Part shown: piece by piece, positions 25,383-44,561 of the stretch
Position numbering within the stretch: the first letter of the stretch is position 1
Layout of the letters: each line of letters starts with the position of its first letter
Assembly: GCA_029821495.1 (NCBI GenBank)
Contig: JALGTG010000001.1
Location: 1-44,561 of the forward strand
Source of the DNA: Candidatus Hebobacteria bacterium
GTDB taxonomy: Bacteria; Armatimonadota; Hebobacteria; Hebobacterales; Hebobacteraceae
Length of the DNA: 44,561 nucleotides
Direction: 5' to 3'
The notes under the pieces: generated by a model
Told to the model about the DNA's origin: nothing
The model's database searches: none
Seen by the model: only the letters and a program-made list of their open reading frames with translations
Translations under genes and position numbers: made by a program

Positions 25383-27125
25383 ATGGCGACACCGCAGGGA
25401 CCGAAAAAGCCGCTGGGGCAGATCCTCCTGGACAAGGGTCTGATCACCCAAGATCAGCTCGACGAGGCCCTTAGGGTCCAGAAGAATACGACCGAGCAGC
25501 TCGGCCGTATCCTGGTGGACTTGGGCTATATCGCCGAGCGCGACGCATTGAAGGCCCACGCCGAGCAGCTCGGCATGCCTTTCCTCGAGCTCGACCGCGT
25601 AAGCATGGACGAGGACGTCGCAAAGGCCATCCCCCAGAGCGTCGTCCAGCGTTACAACGCGGTCCCCATTCGGCGCAGCGGCAACCGGCTGACCGTTGCC
25701 ATGGCCGACCCCACCAATGTCTTCGCCCTGGACGACATCCGGCTCATTACGGGATACGAGATCGACCCCATGCTCGCCGCCCCCGACGACATCAACGCAC
25801 TGCTCCGCGGCGTGGATGGGGGCGCTACCCAGGAAGAGCTTCAAACCGCACTCCAGGCCCTCGACGGAGGCTTCGAGCAGGGGCTGGGCGACGATCTCGA
25901 CCTCACCACTGCAGGCGTCGACGAGGACATCCGCGCGGATCAGGCGCTCGAGGACGAAGCGCCCATCATCCGCGTCGTCAATGTCATCATCCAGCAGGCC
26001 ATCAAAGACCGCGCCAGCGACATCCACGTGGAGCCCGACCGACGCGGAGTTCGCATCCGCTACCGTGTGGACGGCGTCCTCCACGAGGTAATGAGGGTCC
26101 CCAAGTACGTCCACGCACCCCTCGTCTCCCGTATCAAGATTATGGGAGACATGAACATCGCCGAGCGCCGCCTCCCCCAGGACGGACGTATCCACATCAG
26201 ACACGAAGGCAAAGACTACGACCTCCGCGTCTCCAGCCTCCCTACCGTCTTCGGCGAAAAAGTCGTCATGCGTATCCTCGACCAAAGCAGCGTCTTGATC
26301 GGACTCAACAAGCTCGGCCTCTTCCCCGAGATCCAGGCCCAGTTGGAGTCCATCATCGTACAGCCCAACGGGATGATCCTCTCCACAGGACCCACGGGCT
26401 CCGGCAAGACAACCACCCAGTACTCCGTCCTCAACAAGATCAACTCCGTCGAGGTCAACATCACCACCATCGAGGACCCGGTCGAGTACCAGCTGCCGGG
26501 ACTCAACCAGGTCCACGTCAACCGGAAGGCGGGCCTCACCTTCGCCAACGCAATGCGCTACTTCGTCCGCCAGGACCCCGACATCATCATGGTCGGAGAA
26601 ATCCGCGACCTCGAGACCGCCGAAACCGCCATCCAGGCATCTCTTACCGGACACCTCGTTCTATCTACCCTACACACCAATGACGCGCCGTCGGCCGTCA
26701 CCCGTATGGTCGACATGGGCGTCGAGCCGTTCCTGATCTCCGCCTCCGTCATCGGCGTCCTGGCTCAGCGCCTCGGCCGTCGCATCTGCGCCAACTGCAA
26801 GGAGCCTTACAAGCCGCCAGCCGAGGCCCTACAGAGAGTCGGCTTCGACGTCGAGAACATGGATGACGTCGTCTTCTACCGCGGGCGCGGCTGCGATCAG
26901 TGTCTCCACACCGGATACAAGGGCCGCAACGGCATCTTTGAGTTCATGCTCATGACCGAGGAACTCCAGGACCTGATCGTCAAGCGAGCGCCGCTCTCTG
27001 AGGTCCGCAACGCTGCCTTGGCGAGCGGCATGAAGACCCTGAAGTCGGACGGTTTCCAGAAAGTGGTCGAGGGGCTCACAACGGTTGAGGAAGTTATGCG
27101 GGTGGTCTTCACGGCAGGAGGGTAG
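25383..27125 (+). CDS. pilB: Type IV pilus assembly ATPase PilB (GspE family)
   Basis: MshEN-like N-terminus, RASDIHVEP, ERRLPQDGR, Walker A GPTGSGKT, IEDPVEY, RQDPDIIMVGEIRD, TGHLVLSTLHTN and the Zn site CANC/CDQC. Confidence 0.95.
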   Translation: MATPQGPKKPLGQILLDKGLITQDQLDEALRVQKNTTEQLGRILVDLGYIAERDALKAHAEQLGMPFLELDRVSMDEDVAKAIPQSVVQRYNAVPIRRSGNRLTVAMADPTNVFALDDIRLITGYEIDPMLAAPDDINALLRGVDGGATQEELQTALQALDGGFEQGLGDDLDLTTAGVDEDIRADQALEDEAPIIRVVNVIIQQAIKDRASDIHVEPDRRGVRIRYRVDGVLHEVMRVPKYVHAPLVSRIKIMGDMNIAERRLPQDGRIHIRHEGKDYDLRVSSLPTVFGEKVVMRILDQSSVLIGLNKLGLFPEIQAQLESIIVQPNGMILSTGPTGSGKTTTQYSVLNKINSVEVNITTIEDPVEYQLPGLNQVHVNRKAGLTFANAMRYFVRQDPDIIMVGEIRDLETAETAIQASLTGHLVLSTLHTNDAPSAVTRMVDMGVEPFLISASVIGVLAQRLGRRICANCKEPYKPPAEALQRVGFDVENMDDVVFYRGRGCDQCLHTGYKGRNGIFEFMLMTEELQDLIVKRAPLSEVRNAALASGMKTLKSDGFQKVVEGLTTVEEVMRVVFTAGG

Positions 27126-27183
27126 TGCCGCCGTAGGCTCGGGGGGCGACCGTTCACTCTTGCGAACTAGGGATGAGTGCATA

Positions 27184-28359
27184 ATGGCAGAGGCGACCGA
27201 GTCGGGAGAAGCCGGTCCGGAAGTTAGAGCACCAGACGCCCAGGGGCTCCCCACTGAGAGGGTGACGGCCGCGCGCCCCATCGAAGACGTCCACCTCGAC
27301 GAGCTCCTTCACCTCGTTGTCGACAAGAAGGGCTCAGACCTCCATCTCGCGCCTGGCGTGCCCCCCGTTCTCCGCATAGACGGGAAACTGCTCGCCACGA
27401 ACTTCGACGTGCTATCGGACTTCGAAGTGCAGCGGATGGTCTACGCAATCCTCACCGACGAGAACATCCGCAGCTTCGAGACCGACTACGAACTCGACTG
27501 CTCCTACGAGCTTAAGGGCGTCTCTCGTTTCCGGGTCAATATCTACCGCGATCGCGGCGCCGTCGCTGGCGCCTTCCGCGTCATCCCTTCCAGAATCCCC
27601 ACCGTCCGCGAGCTGGGCCTCCCCCTCGTCCTCGAGGACTTGAGCCGCAGACCCCGTGGGCTCGTCCTCGTCACCGGCCCAACTGGCTCCGGCAAATCCA
27701 CCACCCTGGCCGCACTCATCGGCCAGATCAACAACGAACGCTCCGAGCATATCATCACCATCGAAGATCCCATCGAGTACCTCCACACCCACCGGCGCAG
27801 CCTCGTCAACCAGCGAGAGATGGGCACCGATACCCGCAGCTTCGCCCAGGCCCTGCGCCATGCTCTGCGGGAGGACCCTGATGTCATCCTCGTGGGCGAG
27901 ATGCGGGACCTGGAGACGATGGCACTCGCAATCACCGCGGCCGAAACCGGACACCTGGTATTCTCTACCGTCCACACCAACAGCGCCGCCCAGACCGTGG
28001 ACCGCATCGTAGACGTGTTCCCCCCAGGCCAGCAGGAACAGATCCGCATTCAGCTCTCCAACACCCTCGAAGCAGTCCTCTCCCAGCAGCTCCTCCCGCG
28101 CGCCGGCACGCCGGGCCGAATCGCGGCCATGGAGATCATGGTCGCCTCTCCCGCCGTCCGCAACCTCATCCGGGAGGCCAAGGCCCACCAGATCACATCC
28201 ATCATCCAAACCAGCGCCCATCTAGGCATGCAGACCATGGACCAGTGCTTGCGCGATCTCTACCAGCGCGGCCTCATAACCTACGAAGAGGCCATGGGGC
28301 GCGCAATGAACCAGGAAGAGCTCAAGAAGATGCTCTTCACGCGGGGTGAGGAAGCCTAA
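27184..28359 (+). CDS. pilT: Type IV pilus retraction ATPase PilT
   Basis: SDLHL, GPTGSGKSTT, LREDPDVILVGEMRD, AETGHLV.ST.HT, AVRNLIRE (AIRNLIRE motif) and GMQTMDQ. Confidence 0.96.
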   Translation: MAEATESGEAGPEVRAPDAQGLPTERVTAARPIEDVHLDELLHLVVDKKGSDLHLAPGVPPVLRIDGKLLATNFDVLSDFEVQRMVYAILTDENIRSFETDYELDCSYELKGVSRFRVNIYRDRGAVAGAFRVIPSRIPTVRELGLPLVLEDLSRRPRGLVLVTGPTGSGKSTTLAALIGQINNERSEHIITIEDPIEYLHTHRRSLVNQREMGTDTRSFAQALRHALREDPDVILVGEMRDLETMALAITAAETGHLVFSTVHTNSAAQTVDRIVDVFPPGQQEQIRIQLSNTLEAVLSQQLLPRAGTPGRIAAMEIMVASPAVRNLIREAKAHQITSIIQTSAHLGMQTMDQCLRDLYQRGLITYEEAMGRAMNQEELKKMLFTRGEEA

Positions 28360-28388
28360 GGCAGGGCCGTCCCTCAGGAGACGACGCT

Positions 28389-29636
28389 ATGGCAACCTAC
28401 AACTACGTCGCTAAAGATGCCCTGGGAAAGGTCGTCACCGGAAGCTCCGAGGCGGAGAACGAGCAGATCCTCGTCCGCCGCCTCCGCGAGAAGGGCTTCT
28501 GGGTCCAGAAGGTCAACCCAGCCCACGCCCCCGCGCGACAACGGGCCCAAGTCCAGAAGGGCGGCGGATCGTTAGCCGTCTTCAGCCGCGTCAGCGGACG
28601 TGACCTCGCCATCTTCTGTCGCCAGTTCGCCACCATGATCGACGCAGGCGTCTCTCTAGTCCGGTGTCTGGCCGTCCTGGAGGAGCAGAGCGGCAGCGCT
28701 CGCCTGCGACAGATCATCAGCGAGATTCAGGCCGGAGTCGAGTCCGGCGAAACCCTATCCCGCTCCCTCACGCGCTGGCCGCGGGTCTTCGGCAATCTGT
28801 TCGTCGGGCTGGTCCGAGCCGGCGAGGTGGGTGGTGTTCTCGACGAAACCCTGAACCGACTCGCCACCTTCTTGGAGGAAAACGAGCGGCTTCGCCGCAA
28901 AGTCAAGTCGGCAATGACCTACCCGGCCCTGGTCCTGACGTTCGCCACAATAGTGGTCGTCGGTCTCGTGACCTTCATCCTGCCCCAGTTCATTCAAGTC
29001 TTCGAGGACCTGGGCATCGACAAAGACCTCCCCGCACCAACCCGGATCCTGGTCCAGATCAGCGACTTCTTGACCACCAAATACTGGATGGTCATCGGCG
29101 GTGTCATCCTGGCCTTCGTGGTCTTCAGCCAGTACACACGCACTCGCGTCGGCAAGCGACACTGGGACTGGTTCAAGCTGAAGGCACCCGTCTTCGGCAA
29201 GCTCAACCACAAGATCGCGATCGCGCGCTTCTCCCGCACCCTCAGCACGCTGCTCGTCAGCGGCGTCCCCATCCTCCAGGCCCTCGAAACGGTGGCGGGC
29301 GCCGTCGACAACGAGATCATCGGCGATGCCATCATGGCCGCCCGCGCCGCCATCCGTGAGGGCGAGCAGATCGGCGACCCTCTTCAGCGCAGCGGCATGT
29401 TCCCGCCAATGGTCGTCCAGATGGTGGCCATCGGCGAGGAAACCGGCTCCCTGGACGCAATGCTCTCGAAAATCGCGGACTTCTACGAGTCCGAGGTCGA
29501 CGCCACTCTCGCAAGCCTGACGGCGGCCCTGGAACCACTCCTCATCATCGTCCTCGGCTTCATCGTCGGCTTCATTGTCATTGCTATGTTCATGCCGCTC
29601 ATGCACGCCATCAGCCAACTGCAGTCTCAGGCGTAA
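28389..29636 (+). CDS. pilC: Type IV pilus platform protein PilC (GspF family)
   Basis: FCRQFATMIDAG, AGEVGGVLD, KVKSAMTYP, FPPMVVQMVAIGEETGSLD and LEP. Confidence 0.96.
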   Translation: MATYNYVAKDALGKVVTGSSEAENEQILVRRLREKGFWVQKVNPAHAPARQRAQVQKGGGSLAVFSRVSGRDLAIFCRQFATMIDAGVSLVRCLAVLEEQSGSARLRQIISEIQAGVESGETLSRSLTRWPRVFGNLFVGLVRAGEVGGVLDETLNRLATFLEENERLRRKVKSAMTYPALVLTFATIVVVGLVTFILPQFIQVFEDLGIDKDLPAPTRILVQISDFLTTKYWMVIGGVILAFVVFSQYTRTRVGKRHWDWFKLKAPVFGKLNHKIAIARFSRTLSTLLVSGVPILQALETVAGAVDNEIIGDAIMAARAAIREGEQIGDPLQRSGMFPPMVVQMVAIGEETGSLDAMLSKIADFYESEVDATLASLTAALEPLLIIVLGFIVGFIVIAMFMPLMHAISQLQSQA

Positions 29637-29648
29637 GGGGCCTCTTGA

Positions 29649-30500
29649 GTGTCGCCGCTCCCTGGGGCCGTGCTGTACGCTTCGATCTTCACTCTGGGCT
29701 GCGTAGTCGGGAGCTTTCTCAACGTCTGTATCTACCGCATGCCGCGGGACCGATCAGTCGTCGCCCCGCCTTCGCACTGCCCCCACTGCGGAGCCCGACT
29801 GCGGGCCATCGACCTCGTGCCGCTCATCAGCTTCCTCGCTCTCGGGCGGAAGTGCCGCTTCTGCGGCAGCCCGATTGCCTGGCGCTACTTCGCCGTCGAG
29901 CTGATAACCGGCCTGGTGTTCGTTGCCGTTTGGGCAGCCTCCGGCCCGGGGCTGCAAGTGCTGCCAAGCTGGATCTTCGCCTCCGTCGTTATAGCGGTCG
30001 TGTTTACGGACGTGGATCATATGATCATCCCGGACAAGCTCGTGGTGGCCGCACTCCTGGCGGCGCTGTTGAGCGAAGGGCTGTTGGCAATGCGAGGGGA
30101 GCCCCATCTGGCCTCTGTCAACCTGCTGGGCGGAGCACTTCCCATCCCCGGCTTCCTGGCCGGAGGTGTTGTGGGCCTTCTCGTCTTCGCCTTCATTCGC
30201 GTGTTCAGCCAGCTCCTCTTCCGACGAGAAGGAATGGGGCTCGGCGACGTGAAGCTCGCCGGCGCCATCGGCGCCATGTTGGGCCCCGTTCTCGCCCTCC
30301 TGAGCTTCGGGCTCGCCATTGTCGCAGGAGCCGTCCTCGGGATCTTGCTCCTCCTCGTGCGGCTGCGCCGCCGCATGGAGTATCTCCCCTTCGGCCCCTT
30401 CCTCGCCGTCTGCGCTCTGGTGGCGCTGGTGGCGCCGAAGACCCTGATCGGGCTGACCTCCACTCTCTACTCTCGCTGGGTGGAGATGTTGGCCCCGTGA
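29649..30500 (+). CDS. pilD: Prepilin peptidase / N-methyltransferase PilD
   Basis: GSFLNVCIYR, CPHC/CRFC Zn site, D.DHMIIPD, GMGLGDVKL and LPFGPFL. Confidence 0.96.
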   Translation: MSPLPGAVLYASIFTLGCVVGSFLNVCIYRMPRDRSVVAPPSHCPHCGARLRAIDLVPLISFLALGRKCRFCGSPIAWRYFAVELITGLVFVAVWAASGPGLQVLPSWIFASVVIAVVFTDVDHMIIPDKLVVAALLAALLSEGLLAMRGEPHLASVNLLGGALPIPGFLAGGVVGLLVFAFIRVFSQLLFRREGMGLGDVKLAGAIGAMLGPVLALLSFGLAIVAGAVLGILLLLVRLRRRMEYLPFGPFLAVCALVALVAPKTLIGLTSTLYSRWVEMLAP

Positions 30501-30606: not shown

Positions 30607-31680
30607 ATGAAGCGTCACCGAGACTGCCGGACCGGTTTCACCCTGATCGAGTTGCTCGTCGTCATCGCCATCATCACAGTGCTCATCGCCATCGCGCTCC
30701 CTGTCTACTCCCGCGTGCGCGAGAAGGCGCGCCAGGCCGCTTGTATGGCCAACCTCCACCAGTTGGCCGTCAGCGTCCGCATGTACGCACTCGACTTCGG
30801 ACACTATCCCGGCCCCTACGATCCCGCCACCGGACAGGGCGGCCTCAACGCCCTCTACCCCACTCACCTCGACAACCGCGCCGCACTCATCTGCCCCGAT
30901 GACCCGATCCAGACAGGCGAGGATTACGTCAATCAGACGGTCCCAGTCAAACACAACACGCTGATCACGCCGATCGAGTATCGGCAGCTCCTCCTGGCCG
31001 CCAGCAGCATGCAGATGTATGTGGATCTAGACCCCAGCGGCGAGTACTTCGTCAACCTGTGGGAAGGGGACGATCCCAACACCTCCAACGAGGAGCGAGA
31101 CCCCGCCTTCTTCGTCGAGCACTACTCCAGCTACAACACTCTCTACAACTGGATGGGCTATGTGAAGGAAACCCGCACGTACAGGTTGTGCGGCTTCGAT
31201 GACCAGGAGCTCACGCCTGGAGACAACATCGCCTTCTGGTACTCCTGGCACTGCTGGGACCCCGAAGACAGGCTGGGAATCTGGTCCGACCCGAATCTCT
31301 TCCACACCATATCCAGCCATCTCGCCTACCATCTCGCCCAGCAGGTCTACTGGGAGACCTACACCGACAACATGTACGCCACCCAGGACCCCACCCGTCT
31401 CACCGACAACCTCGGCCGACCCCTCTGGAACGGTGGCAACCCGGACCAAAACGCCTACGACTACAGGCCATACGGCATGCCAAGCGCGGCCTTCCCCGGG
31501 CTCATCAACCGTAATGCTCCCGACAACACCATCATAACCCGCTGCTTCCACCACCGGGCCTACACCGGGGGAGGAGACGCTGCCGTGGGCAAGGACATCG
31601 CTCTCAGGATCGACGGAACCTGCGTCATGATCCCAGGCCTCGCCTACGACTGGGCCGTGCAGCCGCGGCAGACCCAATAG
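30607..31680 (+). CDS. Prepilin-type N-terminal cleavage/methylation protein (DUF1559-like pilin)
   Basis: Class III signal RTG|FTLIELLVVIAII, then REKARQAACMANLHQL...MY. Start 30607 (alternative 30592). Confidence 0.88.
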   Translation: MKRHRDCRTGFTLIELLVVIAIITVLIAIALPVYSRVREKARQAACMANLHQLAVSVRMYALDFGHYPGPYDPATGQGGLNALYPTHLDNRAALICPDDPIQTGEDYVNQTVPVKHNTLITPIEYRQLLLAASSMQMYVDLDPSGEYFVNLWEGDDPNTSNEERDPAFFVEHYSSYNTLYNWMGYVKETRTYRLCGFDDQELTPGDNIAFWYSWHCWDPEDRLGIWSDPNLFHTISSHLAYHLAQQVYWETYTDNMYATQDPTRLTDNLGRPLWNGGNPDQNAYDYRPYGMPSAAFPGLINRNAPDNTIITRCFHHRAYTGGGDAAVGKDIALRIDGTCVMIPGLAYDWAVQPRQTQ

Positions 31681-31776: not shown

Positions 31777-32709
31777 ATGAGTCAACGGAGACTTGAGCCA
31801 ACCGGGTCCACCGCTCCCCTCGCGGGGCGGCGCGCGCACGCTATCGGCTTCACCCTGGTCGAGATGCTGATCGTAGTCGCCATACTCATCGTCCTCATGG
31901 CCATCGTCGTCCCCAGCTACAACGTGCTCGCCGCTCAGAATCGCCGCGCCTCCTGCGCCGCCAACATGAAAGCCATCGGCCAGGCCCTCGCGCTCTTCCG
32001 CGAAGACTACGGATGCTTCCCGCCGGACGCGACTGAGTTCCTCCCCCGGCCCACGTTTTCCAATCCGGACGACCCCGGGCAGGGCACCGGCGATGTGGTG
32101 ACCGCGGTGTACGACTCGGAGGGCAACCCGGTCAAGAGCGGAGTCCGCGGCCTCGGCCTCTACACCCTCTACTACCTTGGCGCCTACTCGGCTACACTAC
32201 CGCCACAAAGCGTCGAGCCGCGCATCCGCCACAAGCTCCGAATGCAGCTTGCGGCACAGGGACACGGCCTCAACGGACTGTCATGGTTCCGCGGCGGCGG
32301 CTACATTGACGAGCTCTCCACCTTCCATTGCCCCGCCAACGAAACCGAACTCAACGAGCTCGCCCTTCAGGACCGCAGCCGCCTCCCATATCTCGACGGC
32401 TGGAACAACTACGACATGTACTACCGCCGCAACTTCTGGCACCCGGGCCGGCCCGCCGGCGGCCCGTGGAATACCCGCCATCTCTTCCAGTCCTACCCCC
32501 CTGCCGACACGGTCGTTACCTGGTGCCCCTACCATCGTCATTCCGCCCCTCCCTCCGGTCCCGGCCTGACCGGGGAGATCTTCCCGGGCGACCAGGACAT
32601 CGTGCTCTTCGCGGACGGCAGCGTGCGCCGCATGGCCAGCCAGCCGTCCAACAAGATGTACCAGGAGCCGCCGGCCGCCTCCGGATGGCCCCAGGGCCCC
32701 ATAATGTAG
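31777..32709 (+). CDS. Prepilin-type N-terminal cleavage/methylation protein
   Basis: IG|FTLVEMLIVVAIL, SCAANMKAIGQAL, FHCP and C-terminal LFADGSV. Confidence 0.88.
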   Translation: MSQRRLEPTGSTAPLAGRRAHAIGFTLVEMLIVVAILIVLMAIVVPSYNVLAAQNRRASCAANMKAIGQALALFREDYGCFPPDATEFLPRPTFSNPDDPGQGTGDVVTAVYDSEGNPVKSGVRGLGLYTLYYLGAYSATLPPQSVEPRIRHKLRMQLAAQGHGLNGLSWFRGGGYIDELSTFHCPANETELNELALQDRSRLPYLDGWNNYDMYYRRNFWHPGRPAGGPWNTRHLFQSYPPADTVVTWCPYHRHSAPPSGPGLTGEIFPGDQDIVLFADGSVRRMASQPSNKMYQEPPAASGWPQGPIM

Positions 32710-32727
32710 CCGCACCAGGATCACTGA

Positions 32728-36698: not shown

Positions 36699-39600
36699 TC
36701 ACTTCGCACGACGCTACCTCCTCCACACCCACCTCGCACGGCGCGGCCAGGCACTCCTCGTCGCCGTGCTCGTGCTCTTCGCAGTCGCCACTCTCGCCGC
36801 CCTCTTCACCGCCATCATCGGAGCCCAGCTCTCCCAGGTCGCTCGCCACGGCGATGTCACCAAGCTCCGCAACCTCACCGAAGCCGGCCTCTGGCTTGCC
36901 AACGAGCAGCTCACCTACTCCGTCAAGGGCGCCGATTGGCGGCCGCCCGACGACCCCTACCTCTTCGGCGACGGCCGTATCGAGCTGTCCGTCACTTACT
37001 GGCCTCCGCCCCCGTCCCTCGCCCAGGGCGCTTTCTCCCCCAGCCCCCAGAGCGGACGCTTCATCCTCATCACCTCAACCGCCACCTTCCCCGACTACCC
37101 CTTCCTCCGCTACACCATGGCTGCCCTCAAACCCCTTCTCCTCACCGACTACGCCCGCTTCATCACCGACCGCCGCGAGACCGGCAGGCCCGCCCGCCTC
37201 GGCGTCTCGGGAGTGGAGTTGGGCGGCACGCCCCGCCCCGACTACCTCTTCCGTGTTCAAGGGCCCATCCGCTCCAACACCGATCTCGTCGCCTACGGCC
37301 GCTCCAGCGTTACCCTGCAAACCGCCGATGACCCGGCCGAGACCGGTTCGACATGGGCCCAGTTGGGCATCCCGCGCGACGACCGCATTGAGGTCGCCGG
37401 ATTCCTGCGGCCCGACCCCTCCCACCCGGTCGAGAACCGCGGCGCCGACGCCCTCGCCCTCACGGTCAGCGGCGAGCCCCGCGCCTCCGACCTCTTCCTC
37501 CCCCTGGACGAGGCGCAGGCCGACGACTACGCCGCCGCTTTCCCGGACTGGTCGCTTGACCCCTCCATCCTACATACCTCCAGCCGCATACTTGCTGACC
37601 TCCCCGGATACACCTCGGTGGGCGGATGGTTCCCCGGCCCCGCCAATTCCGTCCCCCGCGTCCAGCCGCCGGACCTCCTCGCCGAACATCCGGACACCTT
37701 CCGCAAGCGCTACTTGCTCCTCACCCGCGATTCCGGCGTCTTCGAGCCCGACGCCGCCACCGGCGACCTCCACAACACCGGCGAGTACGGCTGGGGCTTC
37801 ATGAACCTCGGCGGCATCTACATAGACAACATCTACGACATCCAGTACGACCACGACCTCGAGATGCTTCGCCTCAACTGGCTGCGCTCTGTTGGTGCCC
37901 ATGACCCCCTCGGAGACGAGCGCCCTGACGCCGACGCCCCACTCTCCGGCCCCGCCGACTGGTGGGACAAGACCGGCCGCTACTACTCTCCCCCAGCCGT
38001 CGAGATCGTCCTCCACGGCGAGCAAGACTGCCCCTATATCGAGATCATCCGTCACGACCCCCGCTCGGCGAATGGCGAGCAATACTACTGGTGCGACCTC
38101 TCGGGCGCGCCGATAACCCCCACCTCTCACCCCGCCGATTACGTGCCGACCCCCTATGAGTCAAACTGCGGGCCCGGAGCCGCGCCCGGCACATTTCGCG
38201 TCAAGAACAACACCGCCATCTTCCCCTTCCCACCCAACGGCGTCATCTACGCCGAGGGCAATGTCCGCATCCGCGGCATCATGCCGCCCATCAGGGACGA
38301 GCTGGGCAATTCCGGCACGAGTGTCCCCCTCGCCACAGCCGAGAAAATGCCCTATTTCGCACCATCTAGAACCGACGAAGGCCGCGCCCGCCGCTTCGAC
38401 CTCCAGGTCGTATCCGCCGGCACCATCTACGTCGAGGGCGATCTCCTGACCCCGGCTTCCGCCGGCCTCATAGCCGACACCGTTGAGGTAGACCGCCACT
38501 ACGGCTCCCGCCTCGCACTCCTCGCCCGCGACTACGTCTGCGTCAACACCACCGCCCTCAACCCTAGGCCGATCCAACTCCTCGACCCCTTCCTTGACCC
38601 CGCCACCGATGAGTACTACTTCTACAACGACCGCTACCCGGACTACCCGCCCGGCGGCTATCCACGTCACCTCGTGTTCCAGGGAACCCGAGACCCCGTC
38701 TTCAACAGCGCGGACTATGCGAAAGCGTGGAACCCTCCCACTGACCCCCCATTCGAAACCGATCCCCTTAACATCCAGTTCCTCTACCAGAACGTCAGGC
38801 TGCAGTATCCATACCTGAGCGACCAAATCCCCGACCTTCGCCTGATGCTGGGCCACTCGGGATTCTACGCGCTTGGCGACCCCGAAGGCGGATTCGATGG
38901 CGCGCCGCTAGGCGACCCCCTGGTGGATGACGAAGGCACCGATGAGCCTGCGGTGGATGTGGACATCTACTTCGACAATATCGTGGCCGGCACCACACGG
39001 CTTTGGGATGTCGCTGACACAGACCGCTATACATTCGTGCGCCCTGTGGCTACCCCAGGAGCCGCCGACCAATCCGATCACTGGTACCTCGAAGACGACC
39101 GCCTCGAACACCTGCCCAATGGCTTCCAACAGATGCAGGTGCACCCCAGCGACCTGCCCACCCCATACCTCACCGGCAATAATGACGTCATCACCTTCAC
39201 CTCCCGTGTCCACCCCGTCCGGGACTACGACGGCGACGGCAATATCGACGGCTGGCATATCTTCCCTCGCGACCTCGCCTACATCCTCGGCCCCGTCGCC
39301 GTCGCGCCCCCGTGCCGTCTCCAAGGCAGACCGACCCCCGCGGCCCCGCTCCCGGTTAGCATCGAAGCCATGATCTACGCCCAGAACGGCTCCTGGTTCA
39401 TCATCCCGGGCCCCTGGTTCAACGAAGACCCCGAAGAGAATACCTACACCGGGGACTCCCCCGGCTATCGCGAGCCCCTCAACATCCAGATCTCCGTCTA
39501 CGGAGCCGTCACCGAGAACATGCCCGCCGACATCGGCGCCGCCGCCGAGTGGACCAGCAAGTGGAGCGGCCCCCAAACCCGAGGATTCGGCGGGTACCTC

Positions 39601-39741
39601 AGGTACGCCTACGATCCCCTCCTCCGCTGGTCCCGCTGGGACCCCGACAGCAAAACATGGGCCCCGCGGTTCCCCAACCTCCCTGTCACTTCCGACATGC
39701 TCATCTGGGGCGAAAGAGTCTCCGGCAGGGCAGGATCGTGA
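36685..39741 (+). CDS. Giant PilX/GspK-like (ComZ-like) minor pilin, 1018 aa
   Basis: RRG|QALLVAVLVLF lacks Glu5, as in PilX/GspK; LTEAGL helix; solenoid-type motifs GVIYAEGNVRIRG, GTIYVEGDLL, IEAMIYAQNGS, ISVYGAVTEN and YAYDP. Confidence 0.78.
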   Translation: MPRTSHFARRYLLHTHLARRGQALLVAVLVLFAVATLAALFTAIIGAQLSQVARHGDVTKLRNLTEAGLWLANEQLTYSVKGADWRPPDDPYLFGDGRIELSVTYWPPPPSLAQGAFSPSPQSGRFILITSTATFPDYPFLRYTMAALKPLLLTDYARFITDRRETGRPARLGVSGVELGGTPRPDYLFRVQGPIRSNTDLVAYGRSSVTLQTADDPAETGSTWAQLGIPRDDRIEVAGFLRPDPSHPVENRGADALALTVSGEPRASDLFLPLDEAQADDYAAAFPDWSLDPSILHTSSRILADLPGYTSVGGWFPGPANSVPRVQPPDLLAEHPDTFRKRYLLLTRDSGVFEPDAATGDLHNTGEYGWGFMNLGGIYIDNIYDIQYDHDLEMLRLNWLRSVGAHDPLGDERPDADAPLSGPADWWDKTGRYYSPPAVEIVLHGEQDCPYIEIIRHDPRSANGEQYYWCDLSGAPITPTSHPADYVPTPYESNCGPGAAPGTFRVKNNTAIFPFPPNGVIYAEGNVRIRGIMPPIRDELGNSGTSVPLATAEKMPYFAPSRTDEGRARRFDLQVVSAGTIYVEGDLLTPASAGLIADTVEVDRHYGSRLALLARDYVCVNTTALNPRPIQLLDPFLDPATDEYYFYNDRYPDYPPGGYPRHLVFQGTRDPVFNSADYAKAWNPPTDPPFETDPLNIQFLYQNVRLQYPYLSDQIPDLRLMLGHSGFYALGDPEGGFDGAPLGDPLVDDEGTDEPAVDVDIYFDNIVAGTTRLWDVADTDRYTFVRPVATPGAADQSDHWYLEDDRLEHLPNGFQQMQVHPSDLPTPYLTGNNDVITFTSRVHPVRDYDGDGNIDGWHIFPRDLAYILGPVAVAPPCRLQGRPTPAAPLPVSIEAMIYAQNGSWFIIPGPWFNEDPEENTYTGDSPGYREPLNIQISVYGAVTENMPADIGAAAEWTSKWSGPQTRGFGGYLRYAYDPLLRWSRWDPDSKTWAPRFPNLPVTSDMLIWGERVSGRAGS

Positions 39742-39781
39742 GAGCCGACGCCGTACCCTCTTAGACGTCTTCTGGCCTTCC

Positions 39782-39810
39782 TTGCGGAACAAAAACGCCA
39801 GTGCTATAAT
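39782..39810 (+). promoter_or_regulatory. Promoter of the pilMNO operon
   Basis: TTGCGG, 17 bp, TATAAT with an extended -10 TG. Confidence 0.7.
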
Positions 39811-39899
39811 CTAACACTTCGGGAGGCGGGCGAACCCCAGCCGGCCGCCGCGCGTGGCGGCCCATGTTCGGCCCGCTCACAACTTGAGGGCGAGCAGCT

Positions 39900-41180
39900 A
39901 TGGCGGACAAGCAGGTTCTTGGCCTGGACATCGGCACCAGCCGCATCAAGTTCGCAGAAGCCCGCATGACCCGCGGCGGACCCGTCATCACCGCCGCCGG
40001 CATCGGCATGACCCCGCGCGACGCCATCGCCAACGGAGTCATCGTTGACCCCGCTGCCCTCGGCATGGCCGTAAGGGACCTCCTCTCCTCACACGGAGCC
40101 AAGACCAAGAACGTCGTCAGCTCCGTCGCCAGCCAGTCCTCCCTTGTCGTCCGGCCCATCGAGCTCCCCCGCATGACCCGCGAAGAGCTCGCCGACACCA
40201 TGAAGTGGGAAGTCGACCGGCACATCCCCTTCGCCGCCAGCGAAGTCGTCATGAGCTACGAGCCCCTCATCCCCCCGGAGGAACTCCCCGAGGACGCCGC
40301 CAACATGGAAGTCCTCCTCGCCGTCGCCCAGGAAGACATGATCGACGCCCACGTGCAGACCCTCTTCGCCGCCGGCCTCGACCCCGTCGCCCTCGACGTC
40401 GAGCCCCTCTCCGCATGCCGTTCCCTCATAGACATAGATCGCGATCGCGGCGCCTACGACCACATCTACGGCCTTCTCAGCATCGGTGCCACCACTACCG
40501 ACCTCAGCATCATCCGCAATGGACTCCTCTCCTTCACCCGCGCCATCCCCGTCGCCGGAGACAACGTCACCAACTCCATCGCCGAGGCACTCGGATACGA
40601 GTTCCCCGAGGCCGAACGAGCCAAGGTCGAGCACGGCGCCGTCTTCGTCGAAGGCGCCCCCGCCCTCGAAGCTCCCCGTGAGCCCGAAGCCGCGCCCCCG
40701 GCCCCCATCCCCGAACCTGAAGTCCAGGCCATCTCGCCCCCGGAAGAGGCCCAACCCGAGGAGAGAGTCTTCGACCTCGGCGCCGACGCCGGACCGTCCG
40801 CCCCTCCTCCGCCGGACCAGCAAGCGCCACCGCCCTTGCCCTCCGTCCACAAGCCCACCGCCGGCTCCACCGAGCGGCAGATCTACGACGCCATGCTCCC
40901 CACTTTGGCCGAACTCTCCACAGAGGTCCGCCGCTCCATCGAGTACTACGTCAACCGCTATCCCGATTCTCGCGTCGACAAGATACTGCTCTTCGGCGGC
41001 ACTGCCAGGCTGCCACGCCTCGCCGAGTTCCTCGGCAACGAGGTGGGCCTCGCCACAGAAGTCGGCAGCCCCTTCCAGCGCCTCGCAATCGATCAGATGG
41101 GTGTTACCGCCGATCTCGTCGAAGCCGACGCTTGCTTCATGCCCATTGTCGTCGGCCTGGCGATACGAGATATGCTCTGA
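39900..41180 (+). CDS. pilM: Type IV pilus assembly protein PilM
   Basis: Actin-like motifs LGLDIGTSRIK, HIPF, VLLAVA, LDVEP, IGATTTD, EVRRSIEYY, LFGGTA and VGLAIR. Confidence 0.93.
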   Translation: MADKQVLGLDIGTSRIKFAEARMTRGGPVITAAGIGMTPRDAIANGVIVDPAALGMAVRDLLSSHGAKTKNVVSSVASQSSLVVRPIELPRMTREELADTMKWEVDRHIPFAASEVVMSYEPLIPPEELPEDAANMEVLLAVAQEDMIDAHVQTLFAAGLDPVALDVEPLSACRSLIDIDRDRGAYDHIYGLLSIGATTTDLSIIRNGLLSFTRAIPVAGDNVTNSIAEALGYEFPEAERAKVEHGAVFVEGAPALEAPREPEAAPPAPIPEPEVQAISPPEEAQPEERVFDLGADAGPSAPPPPDQQAPPPLPSVHKPTAGSTERQIYDAMLPTLAELSTEVRRSIEYYVNRYPDSRVDKILLFGGTARLPRLAEFLGNEVGLATEVGSPFQRLAIDQMGVTADLVEADACFMPIVVGLAIRDML

Positions 41181-41200
41181 ATCACGGCCGGAGACGACCT

Positions 41201-42007
41201 ATGATAAAGATCAACCTGCTGCCCGAGTACATCGTCGAGCGCCGGCGCGTCAAGGTCTGGATCGCTGGCCTGGCCGTGCTCCTCATCCTTGAGGTCCTCA
41301 TCCTCGCCGCCTATGTCTGGGGCCCCCTTCCATTCTCTCTCAACCAGAGGCTGGCGAAGGCGGAGAAACGGGAGAGCGACGCCATCGCCGCCGCCCTGGA
41401 GGTCGAGGCAATCGAGACCGAGACCGCCCAGGTCAGAAGCCGCTTCGCTGCAAAGAACTCCTGGGTCCGGTGGGTCAACGAGGCCGACAAGTTGCCCGCG
41501 GAGTGGGTCGACTACCTCAACAGCATCAATGACACCATCCCTGCCGACGTTGTCATTCACGGGCTCCAGCTCCCCAGCGGCGGCGTCCTCAACCTCAGCG
41601 GCTCCACCAGTGACATGATGGCCGCCCTCCGCTGGTACCTCAACATGCTCCGCTGCGATATCGTCCAGCCCGGCCTCCAGTCTGTCCAGTTCAACCCGGG
41701 CGCGCAAGCCGTTACGACGGGCGGAATCACCGACCCGATGGCCATGTCAGTCTCCATGACCGTTGCCTTGAAGCCCCAGGCCTACTCAGTAGTCGGCCGC
41801 GTGCCCGCACCGCCTGCCGGTATCGCGGGCGGTGCCACCGCCCGGGGAAGGGGCGGCGGCGGACGCATGGGCGGAAGCCCCGGTGCCGGTGGACGAGGCG
41901 GCGGCATGCGAGGCGGCAGGGGAGGCGGCATGCGAGGCGGCGGCATGCGAGGTGGTGGCATGCGAGGCGGTGGTATGCGAGGCGGTGGTATGCGAGGTGG
42001 CATGTGA
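41201..42007 (+). CDS. pilN: PilN-like protein with a C-terminal (MRGGG)n tail
   Basis: IKINLLP PilM-binding motif, TM, coiled coil and W..YL..I..TIP.DV....L......LNLSG ferredoxin-like domain. Confidence 0.85.
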   Translation: MIKINLLPEYIVERRRVKVWIAGLAVLLILEVLILAAYVWGPLPFSLNQRLAKAEKRESDAIAAALEVEAIETETAQVRSRFAAKNSWVRWVNEADKLPAEWVDYLNSINDTIPADVVIHGLQLPSGGVLNLSGSTSDMMAALRWYLNMLRCDIVQPGLQSVQFNPGAQAVTTGGITDPMAMSVSMTVALKPQAYSVVGRVPAPPAGIAGGATARGRGGGGRMGGSPGAGGRGGGMRGGRGGGMRGGGMRGGGMRGGGMRGGGMRGGM

Positions 42008-42016
42008 GGCGGTGGC
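41897..42016 (+). repeat. 15-bp tandem repeat GGYGGYGGYATGCGA encoding GGGMR (pilN 3' end)
   Basis: ATGCGA at 41906, 41930, 41945, 41960, 41975 and 41990, then ATGTGA at 42002. Confidence 0.95.
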
Positions 42017-42095: not shown

Positions 42096-42950
42096 GTGAG
42101 CCTACAACGGATCACGCGAGTTCAAGTGCTTATCGTGGGCGCGGCCGTTATCGCGGTCGTCGCCGTTGTCTTCCTGTTCGTCCTCATCAAACCCCAGCTC
42201 GCGGACATCGCCGCCATCGTCAGCTCGGCGGAGGAGAACGAGCAATACGCAGCAACGCGTCCCCAAAAAGAGCAAGCCCGTGCCACCGCCCTCGAGCAGG
42301 AGAGACAGGTCACCGAGGAATGGGACGAGATCGTGGACACCCGCATGCCTGACATCGGCCCCCATCTCCTCAAGGACCCAATCGCCGCCACCTTGCGCTT
42401 CTGGGACCTCCCGGCCGAAGAGGAAGCTGTCATCCGCAATTGGTTCAACGACTCGGGCGCCGTGGTCACCGGCTACGGCTTCCCCACCTGGCCCACCGCA
42501 ATGCCCAGTTCCTTCCCTCCCAGAAACATGCTCGCACTCTCTCCCCTCGACTGGAACCTCTCCGTCTCGGTGGACGACCTCCCAGAGCTGCTGGACTGGG
42601 TGCTCAGCATACCCAGAGCCCCCCGCTTCATGGTGATGCACAGCGTCACAATCCAGGGCTCCCATGGCCCCGGTCAGCCCCTCGTCGCTAGCGTGCCCGT
42701 TACCCTCTACCAGTGGACCGGCGTCGAGCCTACGGGAGGGGGCGCCGCCCCGGCAGAAGGCACGGCCGCCCAGGCCGGCGGCGGCATGGGCCCTGGTATG
42801 GGCGGCGGCATGAGAGGCGGCGGCATGCGAGGCGGCGGCATGCGAGGCGGCGGCATGCGAGGCGGCGGCATGAGAGGTGGTGGTATGCGAGGTGGCGGCA
42901 TGCGAGGTGGCGGCATGCGAGGTGGCATGAGAGGCGGCGGCATGAGGTAG
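42096..42950 (+). CDS. pilO: PilO-like protein with a C-terminal (MRGGG)n tail
   Basis: Position after pilN, N-terminal TM ending IKPQ, coiled coil and LSVSV....L..W...I..APRFM....VTI pattern. RBS GAGGAG. Confidence 0.7.
   Translation: MSLQRITRVQVLIVGAAVIAVVAVVFLFVLIKPQLADIAAIVSSAEENEQYAATRPQKEQARATALEQERQVTEEWDEIVDTRMPDIGPHLLKDPIAATLRFWDLPAEEEAVIRNWFNDSGAVVTGYGFPTWPTAMPSSFPPRNMLALSPLDWNLSVSVDDLPELLDWVLSIPRAPRFMVMHSVTIQGSHGPGQPLVASVPVTLYQWTGVEPTGGGAAPAEGTAAQAGGGMGPGMGGGMRGGGMRGGGMRGGGMRGGGMRGGGMRGGGMRGGGMRGGMRGGGMR
42801..42947 (+). repeat. 15-bp tandem repeat encoding GGGMR x10 (pilO 3' end)
   Basis: ATG(C/A)G units at 42810, 42825, 42840, 42855, 42870, 42885, 42900, 42915, 42927 and 42942. 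Confidence 0.95.
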
Positions 42951-43044: not shown

Positions 43045-43767
43045 ATGAACCCGGCTGACCGAAACAAGATACTGATCATAGGTGGCATTGCAGTCGTCGC
43101 CATTGCTATCATCGTGGTCGTCCTCATGCGAGGCCGAAAGCCGGCCTGGCAAGAGGGACCCGCTGGCGGATTCTCGACCGACGTGGCCCAGGCCCCCGGC
43201 GCCGACGAAGCCGGCTACCCGGCCGCCGGACCAGCCGCAGGTGCGCCAGCCGGACCCCTCCAGGCTGCAGGCCCAGAAGTCGGAGCCGGAGCGGCCGAGG
43301 CCGAGGCGCCTGCCGCCCCGATCGACGTCAGCGTCGGCGTTGTCAAGATGGGCGATGGCATTGACGAGGCCTCCCGCCCCGATTCTTTCCGTACCTTCGA
43401 GCCTGTGATCCCACCCCCCCCACCGGAAGTCGTCACGCCGCTCCCGGTCGCCATGCTGGGCCCCTTCCGGCCCGCCCAGCCCGAAGAAACAGCCGTCCTC
43501 GGCCGCCGCCGGGCCGCTGGCGTCATGTTCAACGAGCGAGCCTGGGCCATCCTCCAGGAGGGCGACAAAACATTCATCGTCAAGCCCGGCGACATTGTTG
43601 ACGGCGTCCGCATCTCTGCCATCGGCAGAGACGCCATCTACGTCACCGACGCCGAGGGGCGCCGCTGGGAGGTCCCCCTCCGAGGTACCGGACCCTCCAC
43701 CGAGATGCGCGGCCCAAGAACCGACTACATCGAAGCGATGCCCGAGCTGCCCCCTGCCGCTCCCTGA
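43045..43767 (+). CDS. PilP/GspC-HR-like protein with an N-terminal TM anchor
   Basis: PilP position in the operon; TM, Ala/Pro linker, R.D.F.TF motif and beta domain AGVM....WAILQ.....IVKPGD.V.G.RI.AI....I.V. Confidence 0.6.
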   Translation: MNPADRNKILIIGGIAVVAIAIIVVVLMRGRKPAWQEGPAGGFSTDVAQAPGADEAGYPAAGPAAGAPAGPLQAAGPEVGAGAAEAEAPAAPIDVSVGVVKMGDGIDEASRPDSFRTFEPVIPPPPPEVVTPLPVAMLGPFRPAQPEETAVLGRRRAAGVMFNERAWAILQEGDKTFIVKPGDIVDGVRISAIGRDAIYVTDAEGRRWEVPLRGTGPSTEMRGPRTDYIEAMPELPPAAP

Positions 43768-43807
43768 CGCGGCTCCGGCACATCTCCAAGAGAACAAACA
43801 AACGCAC

Positions 43808-43836
43808 TTAACAGTCTAACCTCTGTGTGGTAGAAT
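43808..43836 (+). promoter_or_regulatory. Promoter of the secretin-like gene
   Basis: TTAACA, 17 bp, TAGAAT with an extended -10 TG. Confidence 0.65.
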
Positions 43837-43892
43837 ACGCGCCCGGCGACCATCGGGCGGGATATGGCGTCAGCAGCAGGAGGTTTATGGCA

Positions 43893-44561
43893 ATGGCTCG
43901 CAACAGAACGCGACTCTTGGCGACTCTCGCAGTGGTCGCTCTGGCCCTGACCGGCGTGCTCTTCGCCGGCATCCGCGCCTCCGCCCAGATCGAGGACCGG
44001 CCCATTACCCTCGACCTGCGCGACGCCGACCTCGAGGACGCCCTCCGGCTCATCTTCAAAGACACCCCCTACAGCTTCACCCTCGAGCCCGGCATCGGCG
44101 GAACAGTCACTCTCACCCTCAACAACGTGACCTTCAGCCAGGCGCTCCGCGCCATCCTGGAAATGCATGGGCTTACCTACCGCAAAGAAGACCGCATCTA
44201 CCACATTACCTCCGAGCCCATCGAGCCCCCCGGCTTCGGCACCGAACCACCTGTGCAGCCCACACCGCGCGTCGACATATACTGGTTCGGACCCGGCGGC
44301 CGCTACGAGCTGCAGTACCTAGACTGCCGCCTCGTCATCGCCTGGTTTGGTGGCTCGCAGATCCCCTCCTCCCTCATCCCCTTTCCTGCTGAAGGCGGCA
44401 CCGGCGGCGGCACGGGCGGCCGCACCGGTGGCACAGGCGGCATCGGCGGCGGCACGAGCGGCGGCATAGGCGGCTCCAGCATGGGCGGCGGCATAGGCGG
44501 CAGCACTGGCGGCATCGGCGGCGGCAGCGGTGGCATCGGTGGCGGCGGCGGTGGCCGTGGC
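43893..44561 (+). CDS. Secretin/TonB short N-terminal (STN/N0) domain protein, PilQ-like, 3'-truncated by the window edge
   Basis: Not in the ORF track because there is no stop in the window. AGGAGG RBS, signal peptide MARNRTRLLATLAVVALALTGVLFAGIRASA, then ITLDLRDADLEDALRLIF..TVTLTLNNVTFSQALRAIL...GLTYRKE..IYHI, then a Gly-rich tract. Confidence 0.8.
   Translation, partial: MARNRTRLLATLAVVALALTGVLFAGIRASAQIEDRPITLDLRDADLEDALRLIFKDTPYSFTLEPGIGGTVTLTLNNVTFSQALRAILEMHGLTYRKEDRIYHITSEPIEPPGFGTEPPVQPTPRVDIYWFGPGGRYELQYLDCRLVIAWFGGSQIPSSLIPFPAEGGTGGGTGGRTGGTGGIGGGTSGGIGGSSMGGGIGGSTGGIGGGSGGIGGGGGGRG
44393..44561 (+). repeat. Gly-rich low-complexity coding tract (GGTGG/GGIGG units)
   Basis: Translates as GGTGGGTGGRTGGTGGIGGGTSGGIGGSSMGGGIGGSTGGIGGGSGGIGGGGGGRG to the window end. 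Confidence 0.9.

Follow-up and report, generated by a model that had tools for sequence, protein, structure and literature searches.

A predicted type IVa pilus locus with oversized minor pilins and glycine-rich alignment proteins in the phylum Armatimonadota

The stretch of DNA analyzed here is a sequence of 44,561 nucleotides from a Candidatus Hebobacteria bacterium (GCA_029821495.1, contig JALGTG010000001.1; referred to below, at its full length, as the window). Its part from position 25383 onward contains fourteen genes, all oriented in the same direction on the + strand. We read this cluster, with a probability of about 70%, as the type IVa pilus machine of a clade of Armatimonadota that includes 'Candidatus Hebobacteria' metagenome-assembled genomes (MAGs). 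The core is that of a canonical type IVa pilus, and the variable parts represent a lineage-wide variant rather than a new kind of system. A preliminary description of this DNA had proposed a retractile, lineage-specific, and undescribed filament system. The first term is justified, as pilB and pilT are both present, and the second applies to the pilins, whose oversized cassette is conserved across Armatimonadota. The third is an overstatement, because the core is canonical and oversized or modular minor pilins are already established (PMC8179133, PMC6561018).

The cluster consists of pilB, pilT, pilC, a prepilin peptidase gene, five pilin-like genes (here named pln1 to pln5), pilM, pilN, a PilO-like gene, a PilP/PilW-like gene, and a gene for a secretin N0 (STN) domain (Table 1). 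Intergenic gaps range from -14 to 158 nucleotides. The genes 5' of pilB are housekeeping genes (SMC, HisG, QueH, glycerate kinase, and HAD hydrolase), and we therefore place the beginning of the cluster at pilB. All genes that had been listed for the locus were found, all of them on the + strand, and they are also conserved in related genomes. Among the motors, platform protein, and peptidase, two details needed correction, namely, the open reading frame (ORF) of the peptidase and the start of pilT, both given in Table 1 as revised.

Table 1. Features of the pilus locus and its regulatory surroundings (positions are those of the window)
Feature	Position	Strand	Description and basis
Terminator-like hairpin	25058-25079		Belongs to the gene preceding pilB
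Promoter-like site upstream of pilB	25260..25288	+	9/12 consensus matches; scan count in region at chance level
pilB	25383..27125	+	Extension ATPase, 580 amino acids (aa), N-terminal MshEN-type region binding cyclic di-GMP (c-di-GMP); family profiles, PDB matches
pilT	27184..28359	+	Retraction ATPase, 391 aa; likely start ATG 27184, listed ORF start TTG 27085
pilC	28389..29636	+	Platform protein, 415 aa; T2SSF 226.4 bits in two stretches
Prepilin peptidase/N-methyltransferase gene	29649..30500	+	283 aa, GTG start; A24_N_bact 110.8 bits, Peptidase_A24 59.7 bits
pln1	30607..31680	+	GspG/PulG-like DUF1559-type pilin, 357 aa (about 347 mature); N_methyl 33.1 bits
pln2	31777..32709	+	Second GspG-like DUF1559 pilin, 310 aa; SBP_bac_10 29.7 bits (residues 56-216; gathering score 23.3), N_methyl 22.9 bits
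pln3	32728..34812	+	PilV/GspI-like giant minor pilin, 694 aa; PilV TIGR02523 35.8 bits (cut-off 52.2), residues 28-89
pln4	34838..36698	+	Giant minor pilin of the GspJ/HpsC/Verru_Chthon-C-like type, interrupted by a frame change; 295-aa first part plus continuation
pln5	36685..39741	+	GspK/PilX-like giant minor pilin, 1018 aa, without Glu5; N-terminus RRG|QALLVAVL
Promoter-like TTGCGG-17-TATAAT	39782..39810	+	In the 158-nt gap before pilM; read off the sequence, missed by the scan
pilM	39900..41180	+	426 aa, Pro/Ala/Glu-rich insert of about 85 aa (residues 245-328); PilM_2 165.8 bits, TIGR01175 205.3 bits (cut-off 133)
pilN	41201..42007	+	268 aa from MIKINLLP, C-terminal (GGGMR)n tail; family profile versus Myxococcus PilN 3jc8, E 1.7e-9
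PilO-like gene	42096..42950	+	Bitopic protein, 284 aa, C-terminal (GGGMR)n tail; position after pilN, N-terminal membrane helix
PilP/PilW-like gene	43045..43767	+	240 aa; membrane helix, Ala/Pro/Gly-rich linker, C-terminal beta-domain, MPxLPPA end
Stand-alone secretin N0 (STN) paralogue gene	43893..44561	+	Gly-rich tail, 223 of 245 aa in window; STN 52.9 bits

Homology identifies a PilB with an MshEN region, PilT, PilC, a bifunctional prepilin peptidase, PilM, PilN, four class III prepilins, and a fifth protein whose N-terminus is of the GspK/PilX type but has no Glu5. PilB matches T2SSE (460.6 bits) and MshEN (80.8 bits) in Pfam as well as the c-di-GMP motif model NF053729 (65.9 bits; cut-off, 38), and it contains a Walker A motif at residue 336 and two CxxC motifs. 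Its score with TIGR02538 (668.6 bits; cut-off, 675.65) is higher than that with the GspE model TIGR02533 (616.1 bits; cut-off, 630.25), and among PDB chains Thermus PilF (560.7 bits), Geobacter PilB (546.2 bits), and Myxococcus PilB (503 bits) all score above GspE (421.3 bits). PilT lies well above the cut-off of TIGR01420 (502.8 versus 319.1 bits), matches PilT chains with 428.6 to 339.3 bits and PilU with 301.4 bits, and harbors AVRNLIRE at residue 324, which we take to be the PilT motif. PilC scores 420 bits with the Thermus-type PilC model NF052607 and 392.3 bits with GspF, both under their cut-offs. The peptidase contains GLGDVK at residue 197 and two CxxC motifs; an overlapping ORF starting with TTG (positions 29645-30592) gave no family match.

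The alignment proteins follow the pilins. PilM aligns with the PilM chains of Myxococcus (156.2 bits) and Thermus (148.9 bits), with the alignment broken at residues 244/329 by an insert of which 29% is Pro. PilN was recognized with a profile built from the window protein and ten relatives; the window protein by itself matched no library model. The PilO-like gene is conserved in relatives and is homologous (99.3%) to the gene at the same position of L037, a locus in a Zipacnadia MAG. (L-numbers denote loci from a scan of species-representative genomes, in which 117 stretches were confirmed and the best 80, corresponding to 68 loci, were kept.) The PilP-like protein displayed one weak match, to GspC_delta (E 0.0039; residues 164-223, in the C-terminal domain). 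Proteins of this type share a conserved IVKPGD..VDG block, and L037 carries a homologue (94.7%). Based on position, bitopic topology, and conservation, we infer that the gene at 42096-42950 has the function of PilO and that at 43045-43767 the function of a PilP/PilW-type connector. We also observed that the PilP/PilW-like proteins share a short C-terminal motif, (A/G)MPxLPPA, which is conserved and is preceded by a variable region (43700-43767 in the window); this end might be a docking peptide.

The last gene had been taken for a secretin N0 gene. It does encode an N0 domain, yet what begins there is not a secretin gene but the gene of an additional N0 paralogue. The ORF starting at ATG 43893 is identical to P0228, a complete protein of 245 aa that ends 22 aa beyond the window, and the gene is therefore that of a stand-alone N0 protein and not a truncated secretin gene. 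The protein shares 58% identity with a stand-alone protein of 257 aa encoded at L006, compared with only 30% for the N-terminus of the secretin from that locus. It has 48 homologues of 146 to 297 aa, in 47 of which STN is the sole Pfam domain. At L006, L010, L015, and L017, the N0 gene closes with a stop and is followed by a separate secretin gene, whose product has its own signal peptide and N0, Secretin_N, and Secretin domains. The secretins that follow the N0 paralogue at L006, L015, L017, and L037 are 520 to 585 aa in length. The relatives' secretin scores higher with the PilQ model TIGR02515 (152.1 bits; cut-off, 284.35) than with GspD (132.1 bits), both below cut-off, and PilQ chains lead its list of PDB matches; the best match, chain 6w6m, is presumably the Vibrio competence-pilus secretin. 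No AMIN domain was detected in the relatives' secretins that were scanned. From gene order and these relatives, a PilQ-type secretin gene is expected just past the end of the window. The unusual envelope conduit that had been postulated is thus not borne out, as the relatives' secretin is an ordinary PilQ type of 520 to 585 aa. Directly after the secretin, relatives harbor aro genes, either aroB or aroC together with aroK-aroB (L006, 19918-21024; L017, 19206-21970), and at L037 (20159-21367) an N-terminus resembling chorismate synthase was seen by eye. Aro genes after pilMNOPQ also occur in Proteobacteria.

The pilin cassette is where the locus departs from the familiar. In all six frames of the window, only four class III signal motifs (G|FTLxE) were found (positions 30634, 31846, 32812, and 34892), and they belong to the ORFs of 357, 310, 694, and 295 aa, i.e., pln1, pln2, pln3, and the first part of pln4. 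Read as G, G', I, J, K, the gene order corresponds to that of the type II pseudopilins and, by role, to the minor pilins of type IVa pili. The N-termini of pln1 and pln2 are GspG-like, with Glu5, Pro22, and Tyr24; the GspG model TIGR01710 gave 45.6 bits for pln1 (cut-off, 88.85) and 42.3 bits for pln2, whereas the Verru_Chthon models gave 21 to 23 bits for the two proteins versus a cut-off of 70. pln1 also matches SBP_bac_10 (DUF1559, PF07596) with 29.9 bits (gathering score, 23.3), over profile positions 3-41 of 268 only. The H-X9-DG end motif (TIGR04294) is not present in pln2 at a significant score (11.3 bits; cut-off, 19). The two proteins are 33% identical to each other over the first ~99 aa only. 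pln1 has about 110 full-length relatives with 38 to 78% identity, and its look-alike clusters combine N_methyl with DUF1559, one of them having 2,394 members, mostly from Armatimonadota; pln1 is about 90 aa longer than these clusters (256 to 269 aa). We consider pln1 a candidate for the fibre subunit.

The other three pilin-like proteins are giants. In pln3, the PilV and GspI matches both fall within residues 28-91; among 24 members of its family, 21 match PilV, 13 match GspI, and 6 match Verru_Chthon B. The first frame of pln4 (34838-35725) ends with TAG at 35723-35725, and the continuation is open in another frame at 35727-36698. The first part matches N_methyl (26.3 bits) and Verru_Chthon C (27.4 bits versus a cut-off of 256.5). 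When the frame is repaired, pln4 is about 610 to 619 aa long, so that the preliminary figure of about 619 aa was a fair one: relatives do carry a single ORF (618 aa at L013, for example). Intact relatives of pln4 match Verru_Chthon C in 25/27, HpsC in 23/27, and type II secretion protein J in 10/27 cases. For the pln5 family, the GspK model NF037980 is matched by 9/33 members (best E, 1.9e-5), and look-alike clusters contain PilX_N in 15 to 16% or DUF4900 in 13 to 19% of their members. pln5 has 57 full-length relatives with 43 to 57% identity, mostly from MAGs of Armatimonadota, and all those that are named are annotated as 'hypothetical protein'; relatives reach 1355 aa. A search of 1.84 billion cluster representatives with the pln5 profile returned 803 matches at E<=1e-3 and 413 at E<=1e-30, and no credible Pfam domain was found in any of the 42 distant members scanned (one had a weak EF-hand_5 match). 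An EF-hand-like loop in pln5 itself (DYDGDGNID, residues 847-855, window 39223-39249), which recalls the calcium site that PilY1 has, was rejected as it is not conserved in the family consensus.

In profile searches of the PDB, the pln3 and pln4 families match only the N-terminal helix of pilins, and the pln5 family matches nothing. Similarly, pln3 and pln4 share only the N-terminal helix with each other in hhalign comparisons, and pln5 shares nothing with pln4, indicating that the giant pilins are not duplicates of one another. Together, pln3, pln4, and pln5 comprise about 2,260 mature residues, an estimated 250 kDa, with roughly 1,900 residues beyond ordinary pilin size. As is characteristic of modular pilins, pln1 to pln4 have class III signal peptides; the extra mass is evident from length and matches no domain signature. 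A priming or tip complex of minor pilins belongs to the accepted model of the type IVa pilus. The very large tip complex suggested in the preliminary description fits the large I/J/K-like proteins, by analogy with GspI-J-K and the type IVa minor pilins.

The other distinctive elements are low-complexity segments, and here the Gly-rich parts noted in the preliminary description were confirmed by composition for the tails of PilN, the PilO-like protein, and the STN proteins. The last 63 aa of PilN consist of 56% Gly, 17% Arg, and 13% Met, and the last 69 aa of the PilO-like protein consist of 52% Gly, 17% Met, and 14% Arg. At the DNA level, the two tails consist of repeats with a period of 15 nucleotides (41894-42016 for PilN). 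The tail of the N0 paralogue in the window is 64% Gly and 4% Arg. When a tail was counted as Gly-rich at Gly >=40% of the last 40 residues, such tails were present in 9/11 PilN, 7/9 PilO, 26/26 STN, and 0/9 PilP-like proteins. The Zipacnadia MAG L037 has the same gene set with other tail compositions: (PGMGP)n on PilN, with an Arg fraction of 0.00, GMGPP/PPGP on PilO, and (GGYGGRS/GGYGGQS)n on an STN-like protein of 278 aa. Across two classes, then, the position of the tails is kept and their composition is not. Because the tails are conserved in position and not in sequence, they probably serve a physical purpose, for example as a mesh, tether, or flexible spacer, and not as a specific binding site. 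Our literature search found no paper on Gly-rich tails of PilN or PilO. In other MAGs, runs of N and frame breaks occur in or near the Gly-rich repeats and pln4 (L004 at about 7100-7260, pilN of L017, and pln4 of L009). Such loci seem hard to assemble, which bears on the frame change in pln4 of the window.

The cassette is distributed mainly within one phylum. Armatimonadota is the label of 50/68 loci, with Abditibacteriota accounting for 1/68, other phyla for 3/68, and unlabeled genomes for 14/68. pilT, pilC, and pilD precede the pilin genes in 34 of the 44 loci with >=9 kb of upstream sequence, and pln5 is complete and >=800 aa in 54/68. In a FastTree phylogeny of 55 pln5 proteins, the window falls, together with Hebobacteria MAGs, into a clade that comprises 10 rows and has 100% local support. 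The pln5 proteins of L007, L052, and L061, whose bins are labeled Bacillota or Actinomycetota, are nested inside Armatimonadota clades; these bins are probably mislabeled or contaminated. Among the 47 loci with >=4.5 kb downstream of pln5, the next gene is pilM in 10 and an ORF of >=1200 aa in 33; the remaining 4 have neither in that place. In the clade of the window, pilM comes directly after pln5 in 8/8 rows with downstream sequence, the window included. In most other clades, the fifth pilin gene is followed on the + strand by an ORF of 1200 to 2450 aa (e.g., L014, L018, L019, L021, L023-L025, L027, and L031). Eight of these giants that were inspected (1460 to 1872 aa) have Sec-type signal peptides and share an N-terminal region of about 450 aa, and the nine that were scanned gave weak matches to PQQ_2 beta-propellers, NHL, or DUF4159, or none at all. 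This raises the possibility that the post-pilin giant is a PilY1 analogue of the phylum, for which it is a plausible candidate. The window contains no homologue of the relatives' giants (tblastn at 1e-3), and none of its ORFs scanned matched a PilY1-type Pfam family, in agreement with the earlier remark that pilY1 is absent from it. In the main texts searched, we found no paper describing the cassette or the N0 paralogue.

Several points weigh against assigning the locus to a type IVa pilus. PilB falls ~7 bits short of the TIGR02538 cut-off. The PilO-like gene gave no match in Pfam, NCBIfam, or the PDB, and the PilP-like gene gave no significant family or PDB match. The secretin gene lies outside the window, and pln4 is interrupted. 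The matches of pln1 to pln5 to named pilin families cover only the N-terminal 60 to 90 residues and remain below curated cut-offs, and pln5 of the window itself has no Pfam or NCBIfam match. There is no short major pilin (about 130 to 250 aa) in the window, where all proteins with class III motifs are >=295 aa. This absence had been noted from the start and holds for the window, but it is weak evidence, given the number of PulG-like genes in a cultured genome: that of Fimbriimonas is reported to have 79, as well as PilB/C/D/Q/M and six PilT genes, and fimbriae are reported in the same paper (PMC4072686). A fibre pilin encoded elsewhere is plausible for the same reason. Furthermore, relatives of pln1 bear the public names 'type II secretion system protein' and 'PulG,' and Denise et al. 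(2019) re-assigned the generic systems of Armatimonadetes as type II secretion (PMC6668835). These last two points lead to the alternative that the locus encodes a type II secretion-type machine, in which pln1/pln2 would form a pseudopilus with an I/J/K-like cap that pushes exoproteins, such as glycoside hydrolases, through the secretin. The order of the pilin genes mirrors gspG-H-I-J-K, GspG is the best match of both pln1 and pln2, GspK is matched within the pln5 family, and the paper of Carlton et al., which does mention a type II secretion system for Armatimonadota MAGs, contains none of the terms pili, pilus, and pilin (PMC10290634). A type II system would be recognized by GspE, GspL, GspM, and GspC and by the lack of PilT. 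Here, however, a PilT retraction ATPase is encoded within the operon, PilM and PilN occupy the place of GspL, no GspL, GspM, or GspC family reaches significance in the window, and the ATPase and the relatives' secretin both score higher as PilB/PilF and PilQ than as GspE and GspD. The presence of pilT, pilM, and pilN and the scores of the ATPase and secretin disfavor type II secretion, and we regard this alternative as very unlikely.

A type IVa pilus dedicated mainly to DNA uptake, as in Thermus, would accommodate the same core genes; a giant tip pilin would serve as a ComZ-like DNA receptor, and the Arg/Gly-containing tails would bind DNA, as RGG-type repeats bind nucleic acids. PilB is nearest to Thermus PilF, PilM also resembles its Thermus counterpart, a competence protein, the tails of PilN and the PilO-like protein contain 14 to 17% Arg (20 to 23% over the last 40 residues), and the relatives' secretin has 6w6m as its best PDB match. 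ComZ is itself an oversized DNA-binding tip pilin (PMC6561018). Nevertheless, no competence gene family was found among the window ORFs scanned, pln3 to pln5 match no PDB chain, that of ComZ included, beyond the N-terminal helix, and Arg is not a constant of the tails, being absent from the Zipacnadia PilN tail and scarce in the STN tail of the window. A competence pilus is thus doubtful as an explanation of the locus. The frame change in pln4, on the other hand, may reflect either an error of sequencing or a genuine inactivation, and the latter would mean a decaying system with an inactivated tip pilin and no functional pilus in this genome. The in-frame TAG is followed by a continuation in another frame; pln4 is one ORF of about 590 to 620 aa in six relatives (L002, L005, L006, L010, L011, and L013); and the frame switch lies in a variable linker, before WARDPFLLI, that is about 25 residues shorter than that of L013. 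Against decay, the other 13 genes are all intact, and both halves of pln4 are open and align to single ORFs at L013 (618 aa), L005, and L002, with identities of 61 to 64% and 39 to 40% (L013 and L005), which suggests that the change is very recent or else an error of assembly or sequencing. pln4 is also split at L009, and the Gly-rich region of L004 contains a run of N, in keeping with assembly trouble being common in these loci. We therefore think it unlikely that the system is decaying.

As a type IVa pilus, the machine would most likely work as follows. PilD would cleave pln1 to pln4 after the conserved Gly, and PilB would act as a c-di-GMP-responsive extension motor. pln3, pln4, and pln5 would assemble on the platform as a priming complex and remain at the tip, where their non-pilin bulk would provide adhesion or ligand capture, a role taken elsewhere by PilY1 or grafted modules. 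The fibre itself would be built by pln1 and/or pln2 or by a pilin encoded elsewhere in the genome, and PilT would retract it. PilM, PilN, and PilO, the PilP/PilW-like connector, and the N0 paralogue would link the platform to the secretin, with the disordered segments giving reach and elasticity: the Gly-rich tails (PilN, PilO, and N0) and the Pro-rich linkers (PilM and PilP) may be flexible periplasmic or cytoplasmic spacers, as proposed for PilW. One may go further and combine a pilin-only giant tip (about 250 kDa, with no PilY1 in the clade), a fibre of 30- to 38-kDa DUF1559 proteins, and a Gly-rich disordered sleeve or tether into a single picture, although as a whole this is a speculative proposal that we consider improbable. 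If it were true, dozens of tail copies per machine would form a gel-like periplasmic sleeve or an elastic tether around the path of the pilus. Such a Gly-rich sleeve would add a new element to the structure of type IV filament machines and let a bulky tip pass.

Type IV filaments are among the most widespread surface machines of prokaryotes, and nearly all mechanistic work on them comes from a few phyla. The locus described here illustrates how a whole phylum with few cultured members has remodeled the variable components of the machine: three neighboring minor pilins are enlarged three- to five-fold, a secretin N0 domain is duplicated as a separate protein, and the alignment proteins bear low-complexity tails. 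pln5 founds a family of about 800 sequence clusters without domain annotation. This raises the questions of how a tip gains its function without PilY1 and how the machine spans or seals the periplasm. The locus also shows these genes to be mislabeled in current annotation, as 'type II secretion system protein' or 'hypothetical protein.'

Promoters had been proposed at 25260, 39782, and 43808. Our promoter scan did report the sites at 25260 and 43808, but its total of 3 sites versus 2.3 expected from shuffled sequences is at chance level, and the site at 39782 was not reported since its -35 hexamer has only 3/6 matches. An Rfam search of the window yielded 0 matches, and the gaps preceding pln1, pln2, and pilM did not fold more stably than shuffled sequences (z, 0.64, -0.35, and -0.24, respectively), with no sign of a riboswitch or attenuator. 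The window has a G+C content of 65%. GC skew is strongly negative (-0.21 to -0.26) over the large pilin genes (32001-40000), with values of about -0.02 to -0.15 elsewhere, and may reflect Pro-rich coding. Two proteins with tetratricopeptide repeats (TPRs) are encoded 3 to 6 kb upstream of pilB (19516-22291), one with an N-terminal zinc ribbon and the second, of 553 aa, with a signal-like N-terminus; a TPR protein is also encoded after pln5 at L020. TPR proteins serve as pilotins in type IVa pili, but we rejected the two upstream proteins as pilotins, in view of the cytoplasmic zinc ribbon in one, the lack of a clear lipobox in the other, and the housekeeping genes before pilB. Further away, and unrelated to the pilus locus, are genes for a DUF6785/DUF6784 membrane protein (325 bits) and then, on the - strand, for TonB-C and ExbB-type proteins (3338-5365 and 8902-10729).

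Among the systems closest to the one predicted here is that of Thermus. PilB is nearest to PilF (560.7 bits), PilM resembles Thermus PilM (148.9 bits), and there, too, an oversized tip-type pilin is found, ComZ, a beta-solenoid protein that binds DNA (PMC6561018). Thermus PilW is encoded between pilO and pilQ, displays no sequence similarity to PilP, has a GspC-HR-like end, and contains a Gly/Pro-rich flexible region, for which a role as a flexible periplasmic connector from the inner-membrane platform to the secretin has been proposed (PMC13039148); the protein of the predicted connector gene after the PilO-like gene in our locus resembles it in having a Gly/Pro-rich flexible region and a GspC-HR-like end. 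The differences are also clear. The pilins do not map at normal size onto the type IVa pilus of Thermus/Deinococcus, as there are three giant minor pilins here (694, about 615, and 1018 aa) versus one ComZ. Only one MshEN region is present in PilB, versus a PilF chain of 913 aa; the relatives' secretin is 520 to 585 aa in length versus 740 to 760 aa for the PilQ chains in the PDB list; and the extra N0-only paralogue and the Gly-rich tails of PilN and PilO are features of this locus.

Myxococcus xanthus likewise has motors, platform, pilins, and pilMNOPQ at one locus, and it is there that PilM (156.2 bits) and PilN (E 1.7e-9) find their best matches. In contrast, the window has no PilY1, the relatives' secretins have no AMIN match, and the pilins are several times larger. 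With GspG-H-I-J-K, the cassette shares the gene order and N-terminal signatures (GspG for pln1/pln2, GspI for pln3, GspJ type for pln4, and GspK without Glu5 for pln5), but the locus differs in the presence of PilT, PilM, and PilN, in an ATPase of the PilB type and a secretin of the PilQ type, and in pilin-like proteins far larger than the models (101 positions for GspI, 192 for GspJ, and 134 for GspG). The Verru_Chthon B, C, and D families (TIGR02598, TIGR02599, and TIGR02596) and cyanobacterial HpsB and HpsC form cassettes of large prepilin-like proteins that are defined by comparative genomics only; our literature search found no paper mentioning the Verru_Chthon cassette. They provide the commonest named matches of pln4 relatives and some of those of pln3 relatives (6/24), yet the scores are far below cut-off and confined to the N-terminal 60 to 90 residues. 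The DUF1559/H-X9-DG prepilin-like proteins of Planctomycetota, Verrucomicrobiota, and Armatimonadota (PF07596 and TIGR04294) are a further parallel, since pln1 and pln2 pass the gathering score. They differ in that pln1 covers the profile only in part, the H-X9-DG end motif scores below its cut-off, and pln1 and pln2 are encoded within a complete pilus operon.

The giant pilins are finally comparable to the modular pilins (Streptococcus sanguinis PilB/PilC, CofB, ComZ, and GspK), which also combine a pilin N-terminus with bulky extra mass that is presumably displayed at the tip (PMC8179133). In the survey of Raynaud et al., which reports >1,200 modular pilins with 264 architectures, the extreme is 860 aa (PMC8179133); pln5, with 1018 aa and relatives of up to 1355 aa, exceeds it. 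Its modules and those of its neighbors match no domain signature, and the three giants are adjacent and conserved across the phylum. What is new here is the combination of three adjacent giant I/J/K-type pilins with a separate N0 paralogue and Gly-rich tails on PilN and PilO.

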